Of a stretch of DNA of 64,000 nucleotides, positions 1,256-3,169 are shown one piece after another. Origin of the DNA: Octopus vulgaris. Its lineage: Eukaryota. How positions within the stretch are numbered: the stretch's first letter is position 1; each line of letters opens with the position of its first letter. Location of the stretch: NCBI GenBank assembly GCA_951406725.2, contig OX597817.1, positions 147,498,001 to 147,562,000 of the forward strand, read 5' to 3'. The position numbers and the translations under genes are program-made. The notes under the pieces were generated by a model. It ran no database searches, was not told the origin of the DNA, and was given only the letters and a program-made list of their open reading frames with translations.

Positions 1256-2411
1256 CTTTAAGATATCAGCTATTTCTAGCAATGGCAATTAGATGTGAGT
1301 TCTTATTATCTGGAGTAATTGCAAAGGAAAACATAAATATTTGGTTGACTGATTTTATTTCCATTCCCTGTTAGATTGAATGCGATTACTCAACATCAAT
1401 CTTTGAAATGATGTTAAATGTGTACTGAGACTCGTGGAATGTAGGAGTAGAGCCTTTCGTAAATTTCATGTGTTTTCTGTTATTTTTTTATATGTATGTA
1501 CATATACAACGATACACAGAAAATAGGCTTAATGATAGAAGTGCTGGGCGTAAGTGCGCTTGAGTGCATGTATGGCGGCGTGCATATGCGAGAAGGTATA
1601 TATATATATATATATATATATATATATGTGTGTGTGTGTGTATGTGTGATTGTGTGTGACTGTGTGTGAATATATGTATGTATGATTGTGTGTGACTGTG
1701 TGTATATATATATATATATATATATATATATATATGTATATATAATAGATGTTTTGATATGCGCACTCACTCATATATAAAGATAAATATACAAAAAGAC
1801 ATGCTCGAAATTTTATATATAGATGTGTGCGTGTGTGTTCGTGTGTGTGTGTGTGTGTTCTTGTGTGTTTGTGTTCTTGTGTGCGTGTGTGTGTGTGTTC
1901 TTGTGTGTGTGTGTGTGTGTGTGTATGTGTGTATATGTACATGTACATGTGAATGTTGATAATAGAATACTATGTTAAACTCTACTGAATCAGAGACAGT
2001 TTGACCGAGACAGCGACCTGTAACGTACTCTGAAAATAACATGAATAACTGCACGCAATGTCAATCTATCCATCCATCCATCTATCTATCTATCTATCTA
2101 TCTATCTATCTATCTATCTATCTATCTATCTATCTATCTCTCTCTCTCTCTCTCTCTCTCTCTCTCTCTATATATATATATATATATATATATATAGCAA
2201 TAATAATTCTCTAAACGAGATATAGACAGTAACTGCTCCATAACAAAAGGGACATTAGCCATTTGAATGTGGCTAGGGACAGGGCAGGGCGGTGGGGGTG
2301 TTACTGATGCATTTAGCCCCAGGCGATCATCAACGTCACCAGATAGGCTGACACCATCACGGTGTCCTCTATCCTGCAAAGGGAGATCATTCCCCGAAGA
2401 AGCAGATGCCA

Positions 2412-2456
2412 CATACGGACCCGGGTTTCAAGGTGTTTGCCTCTCGTCAACTTATG
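2412..2456 (-). ncRNA. Type I hammerhead ribozyme motif (U3 variant)
   Basis: Minus strand: CAUAAG-UUGACGA-GAGG caaaca CCUU-GAAA-CCCGGG-UC-CGUAUG; palindromic stem III ACCCGGGU, GUC triplet. Confidence 0.6.
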
Positions 2457-2654
2457 GTAGGCACCGCCCCTCGACGAACGACTCTGAGTGCAGGATATTT
2501 ATATATAGCTTTTCACGTAAATACATTTACTGATTTCGAAAATCTGTTCGACAGCAATAATAATTCTCTAAACGAGATATAGACAGTAACTGCTCCATAA
2601 CAAAAGGGACATTACCCATTTGAATGTGGCTGTTCGTCGAGGGGAGGTGCCTAC

Positions 2655-2699
2655 CATACTTTGACGAGAGGCAAACACCTTGAAACCTGGGTCCGTATG
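2655..2699 (+). ncRNA. Type I hammerhead ribozyme motif (U3 variant), inverted copy
   Basis: CAUACU-UUGACGA-GAGG caaaca CCUU-GAAA-CCUGGG-UC-CGUAUG. Confidence 0.55.
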
Positions 2700-3169
2700 T
2701 GGCATCCGCTTCTTCGGGGAATGATCTCCCTTTGCAGGATAGAGGACACCGTGATGGTGTCAGCCTATCTGGTGACGTTGATGATCGCCTGGGGCTAAAT
2801 GCATCAGTAACACCCCCACCGCCCTGCCCTATCCCTAGCCACATTCAAATGGCTAATGTCCATATGTATATATAGTACGAACTAACTGAAAAAAAACACG
2901 GAGACGATATGGTAACAAACAAACGGGTTGTATCAGGTTTACGTTCAGGAAAATTAGAAGTATTTTAGTTTCGCGCATGTGCTATTCTATGGAAAGAAAA
3001 AGGATGAGACAAAAAGAAGAAACGAAAAAATGAACAACGACACATGCTGAAAAGAGTGCATTTGTGTGTGCGTGTGTGTGTGTGTGTGTGCGTGCTTACA
3101 TATATATATATTTATATATATATGTGTGTGTATGTGTGTGTAAGTGTGTATCCATCTATCTAACTATAT

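Follow-up and report, generated by a model that had tools for sequence, protein, structure and literature searches.

Retrozymes, Penelope-like elements and their hammerheads

In the hammerhead ribozyme, Watson-Crick geometry is regarded as a requirement for the tertiary pair between core positions 3 and 8. Nature is known to swap this pair for U3-A8 (PMC3088659; PMC4209133), and a halophile hammerhead has been described with the core U2a-G2b-U3...G8, which carries a 2-nt insertion (PMC7151607, citing Perreault 2011). Deep scanning of a type III hammerhead gave low activity for every single change in this core region (PMC9901934). Dimer-type hammerheads are described as having a short, self-complementary stem III (PMC4209133).

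Retrozymes are regarded as pLTR derivatives in bioRxiv 10.64898/2026.07.22.740005, which also builds a case for the use of Penelope-like element (PLE) enzymes by animal retrozymes on co-occurrence and phylogeny, chiefly among vertebrates. Insertions of PLEs are described as comprising a partial tandem, an inverted 5'-truncated copy at the 5' end and a 30–40-bp tail at one end, with a bias towards (TA)n (PMC8557442). PMC3846280 likewise describes a geometry of partial tandem, inverted copy and tail, and proposes self-priming on an antisense template as an alternative route to head-to-head copies. In the experiments reported in PMC11167929, purified PLE protein cut and extended both strands of AT-rich DNA in vitro, and reverse transcription started at two internal sites bounding the tail. 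Uncleaved RNA was the main substrate in vitro, the hammerhead needed the protein, and hammerhead mutants had no effect on insertion (PMC11167929). The role of cleavage in the spread of such repeats is treated as unsettled for the hammerheads of PLEs and retrozymes (PMC8557442; PMC11167929).

The feature described here occupies positions 2196–2861 of a 64-kb window, the whole stretch of DNA that was analysed. It is probably one insertion of a non-LTR retrozyme, for which a Penelope-like RT/endonuclease acting in trans would have provided the mobility, and in which U3 is the state of the family and not a product of decay.

Architecture of the insertion

The element comprises a 79-nt direct repeat (2196–2274 and 2553–2631; 78/79 identical, spaced by 357) and 230-nt inverted arms (2250–2479 and 2632–2861) that are complementary at 224 positions, the six differences lying at 2280, 2404, 2423, 2451, 2452 and 2466 in arm-1 coordinates. 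An earlier note on this DNA had claimed a direct repeat of about 79 bp, highly similar 230-bp inverted arms and a fairly young insertion. Both repeats are as it described, and its view of their age agrees with the total of seven differences in 309 duplicated positions, set against roughly 65–90% identity among most other repeat copies in the window. Coordinates of all features are collected in Table 1.

Table 1. Features of the insertion and of its relatives in the window.
Feature	Positions	Strand	Details
(TA)n tract, left end, likely target	2170–2195	.	
One whole 357-nt ORF-less retrozyme-like unit, GC 47%	2196–2552	- (sense)	Period, composition, fold
54-nt one-sided tail, a 3' extension of the main copy only	2196–2249	-	47-nt homologous tail at 37670–37716
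6-bp hairpin just 5' of the tail-less 3' end	2256–2275	-	z -1.32, alone non-significant; same place in 37.6-kb relative
Extended stem I rod, predicted, 37 inter-arm pairs, hammerhead at tip	2370–2497	-	
Type I hammerhead layout, arm 1	2412–2456	-	U3 2450, G8 2445, G12 2429, C17 2418; mismatch pair 2.2-1.2 (2452)
79-nt 5'-truncated upstream copy: partial tandem, pseudo-LTR-like direct repeat	2553–2631	-	
Inverted 5'-truncated copy, tail-less, joined head to head	2632–2861	+	
Type I hammerhead layout, arm 2	2655–2699	+	U3 2661, C17 2693; mismatch pair 2.1-1.1 (2660)
Distant relative, 67% over 134 nt, truncated before hammerhead	37477–37716	.	
Distant relative, ~55% global identity, 1.5 units of period 349, beside (TA)n	43592–44128	-	

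Read on the minus strand, in the sense of the hammerhead, the main copy begins with the truncated 79 nt (2631–2553), continues through the whole unit (2552–2196) and ends at the (TA)n tract, so that the insertion holds 1.22 units plus the inverted copy. The head-to-head junction at 2631/2632 displays neither microhomology nor added bases. The inverted copy stops 54 nt before the 3' end of the main copy, just beyond the small hairpin of Table 1, which is a candidate internal start signal for reverse transcription. The right flank (2862–2874) is likewise TA-rich, and no target-site duplication is resolvable between it and the (TA)n left end. An ATG-led frame passes through hairpin and tail, within a 105-aa frame (2527–2844) for which Pfam gives no match. 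In its period, GC content, lack of an ORF and type I hammerhead, the unit falls within the range that defines non-LTR retrozymes (150–450 nt, ORF-less, GC <50%, type I hammerhead).

The remainder of the window is microsatellite-rich animal DNA with several further repeats. SINE-like families, which may resemble octopus SINEs, are abundant and many are split by microsatellites (10136–10575, 13125–13560, 32000–32360, 44130–44345, 61550–62110 and others). A broken Tc1/mariner-like transposase remnant lies at 21157–21773 (HTH_Tnp_Tc3_2, E 1.3e-5, below the curated cut-off). Older duplicated segments (5347–5801 with 6029–6589, and 5806–6045 with 9376–9624) lie ~790 bp apart and are 85% identical, with other repeats interrupting them, and 4547–4960 is a long (CAC)n-type trinucleotide array with strong GC skew.

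Hammerhead layouts in the two arms

Each arm contains a type I hammerhead layout with the core strand UUGACGA, as the earlier note had claimed. In both, three stems surround the core in type I order: a 6-bp stem I with one mismatch (restored in the family, as described below), a 4-bp stem II with a G10.1·U11.1 closing pair and a 6-nt loop, and a short stem III, with a GUC cleavage triplet. The core bases U4, G5, A6 and A9, G12, A13 and A14, the pair A15.1-U16.1 and H17 are complete in both arms. The exception is the 3-8 pair, which is U3·G8 in both and neither of the Watson-Crick forms, C-G or U-A. The stem I mismatches differ between the arms and together give the consensus CAUACG/CGUAUG; this too had been noted, and CAUACG is also the family consensus in the contigs. 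Of the 'twin' hammerheads of the earlier note, both layouts are present, but they lie on opposite strands and therefore no single transcript carries both in sense.

Such layouts are rarely expected by chance. With stem I required to pair at 5/6 positions or more and stem II at 4/4, and with both copies counted as one event, the expectation was 0.025 layouts per simulated 64-kb window (40 Markov-resampled windows). Rfam returned no hammerhead match at gathering score across the whole window, and no hammerhead among eight weak matches at E up to 10 in 2000–3100; these eight were dismissed as microsatellite or hairpin noise.

Taken alone, the hammerhead segments show no more folding stability than shuffled sequences (z -0.25 and -0.16), and the circular monomer is only modestly stabler than shuffles (z -1.63; relative z -2.74). 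The predicted rod that extends stem I has a duplex energy of -49.2 kcal/mol, and 0/300 shuffles of its 5' arm were as stable. Stem III is self-complementary in both arms, with dimer duplexes of -14.9 and -9.8 kcal/mol.

Relatives within the window

A profile search of the window with the 357-nt unit revealed two further loci. That at 37477–37716 repeats the geometry of the 2196–2861 insertion on a smaller scale: its inverted arms are 84 nt long (98%), one of them bears a 47-nt tail whose end falls at the homologous place, and TA tracts flank the locus left and right. The two units of the locus at 43592–44128 are 83% identical to each other, and one contains a partly decayed hammerhead at the homologous position (43803–43845) with a U3-A8 core. 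Its stem II is decayed (1/4 pairs), as is position 15.2; stem I retains 6/6 pairs, 4/6 of which are changed on both sides relative to the 2196–2861 element in a core-anchored comparison. The earlier note had pointed to covariation among copies as a check on the hammerheads, and these four compensatory pairs, seen against one ~55%-identical relative, provide it for stem I. The 43.8-kb relative also has a 41-pair extended stem, which 0/300 shuffles matched in stability. Each of the three family loci has a TA tract next to it on one side or both, TA tracts being common in the window.

A relaxed hammerhead scan of the window gave five sites. Those at 4275 and 30580 were rejected, with stem II at 1/4 pairs and long loops, 0.675 such sites being expected per window. 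The site at 4275 lies inside the first copy of a 93-nt repeat (4194–4286 and 6133–6225; 92% identical).

The family in other sequencing runs

Part of the element is present in 20 of 24 listed sequencing runs (4 coded organisms, 10 studies). For the family comparison, contigs from four of these 24 (X1, X7, X9 and X15; three organisms) were compared with 2250–2631 at a likeness of at least 80%, with variants listed at a share of at least 5%. The matching contigs (1061, 760, 297 and 61 per run) are unphased for variants, and their depth does not equal copy number; none of the 24 listed runs is on record as RNA, and the contigs of X9, which is guessed to be RNA, were not counted as evidence of expression. 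Homologous contigs span all 30 bins in all four runs. Exact-pattern scans of metagenome contigs and of prokaryote genomes gave 0 matches in each.

At U3 (2450), no other base reaches 5% of depth in any of the four runs. Two bases away, at 2452, the arm-1 base differs from ~100% of depth in every run, and the family letter, present in 14, 24, 23 and 8 contigs, restores the stem I consensus; no family variant is listed at 2451, the equivalent of the arm-2 mismatch at 2660. The homologue alignment that the earlier note had proposed thus places U3, and not C3, as the family state among matching contigs. Its suggestion that U3 predates the inversion is borne out with room to spare, U3 being far older and common to three organisms and the ~55%-identical relative. 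At the partner position, G8>A accounts for 0, 34, 25 and 9% of depth across the four runs (0, 8, 6 and 2 contigs), which leaves U3·G8 at 66–100% of depth in matching contigs and U3-A8 as a minority. In X7 the depths of G8>A and G10.1>U are nearly equal (6449 and 6489), and the two changes, though unphased, therefore probably mark a single subfamily. Loose ends at 2449 that give C3, joined to a different upstream sequence, occur in at least two contigs of X1 and at least two of X9.

Variation elsewhere in the hammerhead largely respects its stems. Pairing is retained or improved at 2453 (A-U to G·U), 2468 and 2469 (G·U to A-U) and 2430 (G·U to G-C), and the stem III loop varies between CG, UG and UA with self-complementarity kept. 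The variant at 2443 (G10.1>U, 17–37%) breaks a pair to give a U·U closing pair, which is tolerated according to PMC3088659, and a variant at 2407 also breaks a pair, reaching up to 4% in three DNA or unlabelled runs. The other core bases (U4, G5, A6, A9; G12, A13, A14; A15.1-U16.1; H17) have no variant row in any of the four runs. As 8/45 hammerhead positions vary in the contigs, ten invariant core bases would arise by chance about once in seven, so this invariance carries little statistical weight by itself.

The hammerhead is covered at a depth one to two orders lower than that of 2276–2340 and 2523–2600. With the 80% cut-off, this means that commoner sister subfamilies with other hammerheads are probably unseen, and the family state of U3 holds only for closely matching subfamilies. 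Across the cleavage site (2393–2431), depth falls ~tenfold in X1 and far less in X7 and X15, with no common start or end listed. Across the unit junction at 2552/2553 it is unbroken in all four runs; one X9 contig steps back by 357, and a full dimer was not seen in the contigs. No strand-change joint or inversion junction is listed in the four runs, contigs being unable to prove its absence. One deep X9 contig skips 169 nt (2349–2519) including the hammerhead, and is possibly a hammerhead-less derivative of ~188 nt or a replaced segment.

Of the six differences between the arms, five are private to one arm relative to the family and 2423 is a family polymorphism. Four of the five private changes fall at family CpG sites; we rely on this count alone, as the binomial value (P 1e-4) is inflated by sites having been defined from both arms.

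A probable Penelope-like route of insertion

Judged by its layout, the arrangement is the ordinary Penelope-like insertion pattern. In the mechanism we propose, a PLE enzyme acting in trans would nick both strands of a (TA)n tract, and each nick would prime one cDNA, one from the outer start site at 2196 and the other from the inner site at 2250, 54 nt upstream. Both cDNAs would traverse an intact cleavage site and one would be longer than the unit, from which it follows that the template RNA was presumably circular or an uncleaved multimer. Two 5'-truncated cDNAs would then be joined head to head. The predicted task of the hammerhead in the source elements is to reduce multimeric RNA to unit length, acting as a dimer via the self-complementary stem III, and cutting with U3·G8 would probably be slow. 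The geometry fits self-priming (PMC3846280) as well as two-nick priming, and cannot separate them.

No autonomous partner lies in the window, where the longest stop-to-stop frame is low-complexity and 212 aa in length, and no frame provides the RT plus GIY-YIG ORF of an autonomous PLE. Two octopus Naiad consensus sequences are listed with a (TA)n preference in the supplement of PMC8557442. By eye, their 5' regions contain a similar short hairpin before the ORF start, which may be chance.

RNA reading through the insertion is predicted to fold, from either strand, into a long hairpin (-516 and -529 kcal/mol) with a 230-bp duplex at 97%, in line with the long dsRNA hairpin that the earlier note had foreseen if the locus were transcribed. 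The ribozymes of this locus are probably dead, judging from their opposite strands, the predicted burial of the sense hammerhead in the duplex and the private stem I mismatch that each has beside its core.

Alternative readings

It could be argued that this hairpin is itself the function, kept by the host as a source of small RNA or a substrate for editing. The predicted duplex would suit such a role, being long, nearly perfect and available on either strand, but its shape is a routine by-product of PLE-type integration that recurs at 37.5 kb, the arms have drifted by five private changes, four of them at family CpG sites, and there is no sign of conservation of this locus; we regard a kept hairpin as very unlikely. 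A closer competitor identifies the unit as the pseudo-LTR of an autonomous PLE, of which the insertion would be a stump, with no self-standing retrozyme involved. PLE insertions are mostly 5'-truncated, with the first ORF codons included in pLTR and tail (PMC3846280), and an ATG-led frame indeed runs through hairpin and tail here. With retrozymes themselves reported as pLTR derivatives (bioRxiv 10.64898/2026.07.22.740005), the two readings are close. The tail, however, continues straight into the next unit, and the frame ends within a few codons and lacks a Pfam match. The 43.6-kb relative also closes, on its 349-nt period, and the unbroken junction depth in all four runs and the X9 contig that steps back by 357 point the same way. 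Helices of 6 and 4 bp are moreover the canonical sizes of retrozyme hammerheads and not those of the minimal PLE type, as given in PMC4209133. A stump is consequently unlikely, and a retrozyme inserted by a PLE enzyme is preferred.

Within that preferred reading, the status of the U3·G8 pair can be viewed in several ways. That U3 merely arose when a canonical C3 decayed in this copy, ahead of the inversion, is hardly credible. C-to-U is a common transition and the loose ends at 2449 do provide C3 in at least two contigs each of X1 and X9, yet C3 stays below 5% of depth in all four runs and three organisms, the C3 contigs differ in upstream sequence, and the ~55%-identical relative is also U3. 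Far more serious is the possibility that U3·G8 marks a dead ribozyme carried along, whose source had lost the 3-8 pair and spread on because integration needs no cleavage. This is compatible with a retrozyme inserted by a PLE enzyme, and we judge it evenly balanced. Given the low activity of single core changes in the deep scan (PMC9901934), U3·G8 may retain hardly any activity; insertion in vitro was unaffected by hammerhead mutants in PMC11167929, and 8/9 Xenopus retrozyme dimers were uncleaved in vitro in bioRxiv 10.64898/2026.07.22.740005. Both cDNAs at this locus would also have crossed an uncleaved site, and G10.1·U11.1 adds another deviation from consensus. Against a dead passenger, the other core bases have no listed variant, most stem variants preserve pairing, and sister forms with U3-A8 and with C3 occur, as would be expected of a tolerated U·G intermediate; a natural core with U3 and G8 (plus the 2-nt insertion) is known from the halophile (PMC7151607).

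Taken together, the U3·G8 majority, the A8 minority, the C3 loose ends and the U3-A8 relative make it likely, on sequence grounds, that the U·G, U-A and C-G states of the 3-8 pair coexist in one family. As the distant relative has U3-A8, U3 is likely to be old and G8 the later change. In the alternative order, A8 might have arisen from G8 when a CpG site changed in a source element; general CpG decay as the origin of A8 is disfavoured, 13/16 CpG sites of the unit being free of listed variants. We would only tentatively suggest that the wobble works, as a selected intermediate, in an amplified animal retrozyme. Its subfamilies might then record a compensatory walk through all of C-G, U·G and U-A, and its hammerhead might be a slow cutter, dependent on a dimer or a protein, of a kind missed by current descriptors. 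PLE footprints would also be borne here by a retrozyme of canonical type, in a genome of invertebrate-like character.

Comparison with known systems

The metazoan non-LTR retrozymes described by Cervera and de la Pena 2020 (PMC7229834) resemble this family in unit length (350–390 nt in mussel, 357 nt here), GC below 50%, lack of an ORF and partial tandem arrangement, as well as in a type I hammerhead with a 6-bp helix I, a 4-bp helix II and a short self-complementary helix III. One axolotl family in PMC7229834 also has a U·U base in helix II. Unlike those retrozymes, the core here is U3·G8, with a minority of U3-A8, and would be missed by consensus descriptors; the copies are 1.22 units (1.5 at 43.6 kb) plus, at 2196–2861, an inverted copy in place of a dimer or multimer. 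No description of cephalopod retrozymes was found in the literature searched, and supplementary data beyond its reach may include this family.

The PLE insertions of PMC8557442, PMC3846280 and PMC11167929 share with this locus the partial tandem, the head-to-head inverted copy, the one-sided tail, the TA-rich target and a hammerhead in the repeat. The differences are that no RT/GIY-YIG frame is present here, that the hammerhead is of canonical size where the PLE type is minimal, and that the tail measures 54 nt (47 nt at 37.5 kb) against the published 30–40. A tail, an inverted copy and a TA target on a closed unit of ~350 nt with a canonical hammerhead would amount to mechanistic footprints of the use of PLE enzymes by animal retrozymes. 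The sister subfamilies, which carry U·G, U-A and, in all probability, C-G, also form a ready-made series for asking if a wobble allows cleavage and if cleavage has any bearing on spread.

In its core, the family stands nearest to the Cercyon PLEs of Schistosoma (~1,300 hits with U3-A8; PMC4209133; Perreault et al. 2011, PMC3088659), with which it shares a family-level U3 in a PLE-linked repeat. The 43.8-kb relative and the A8 minority subfamily are of this same U3-A8 type; the majority here differs from Cercyon in having the U3·G8 wobble and not a Watson-Crick swap. Censuses that require CUGANGA or U3-A8 would miss such a family. Apart from the halophile core, the literature searched yielded no amplified repeat in which U3·G8 predominates, and supplementary tables and earlier studies outside that search may contain cases. 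The halophile hammerhead (PMC7151607) likewise combines a natural U3 with G8, as a single prokaryotic or viral case with its 2-nt insertion, whereas the same combination is carried here, free of any insertion, by an amplified animal repeat.
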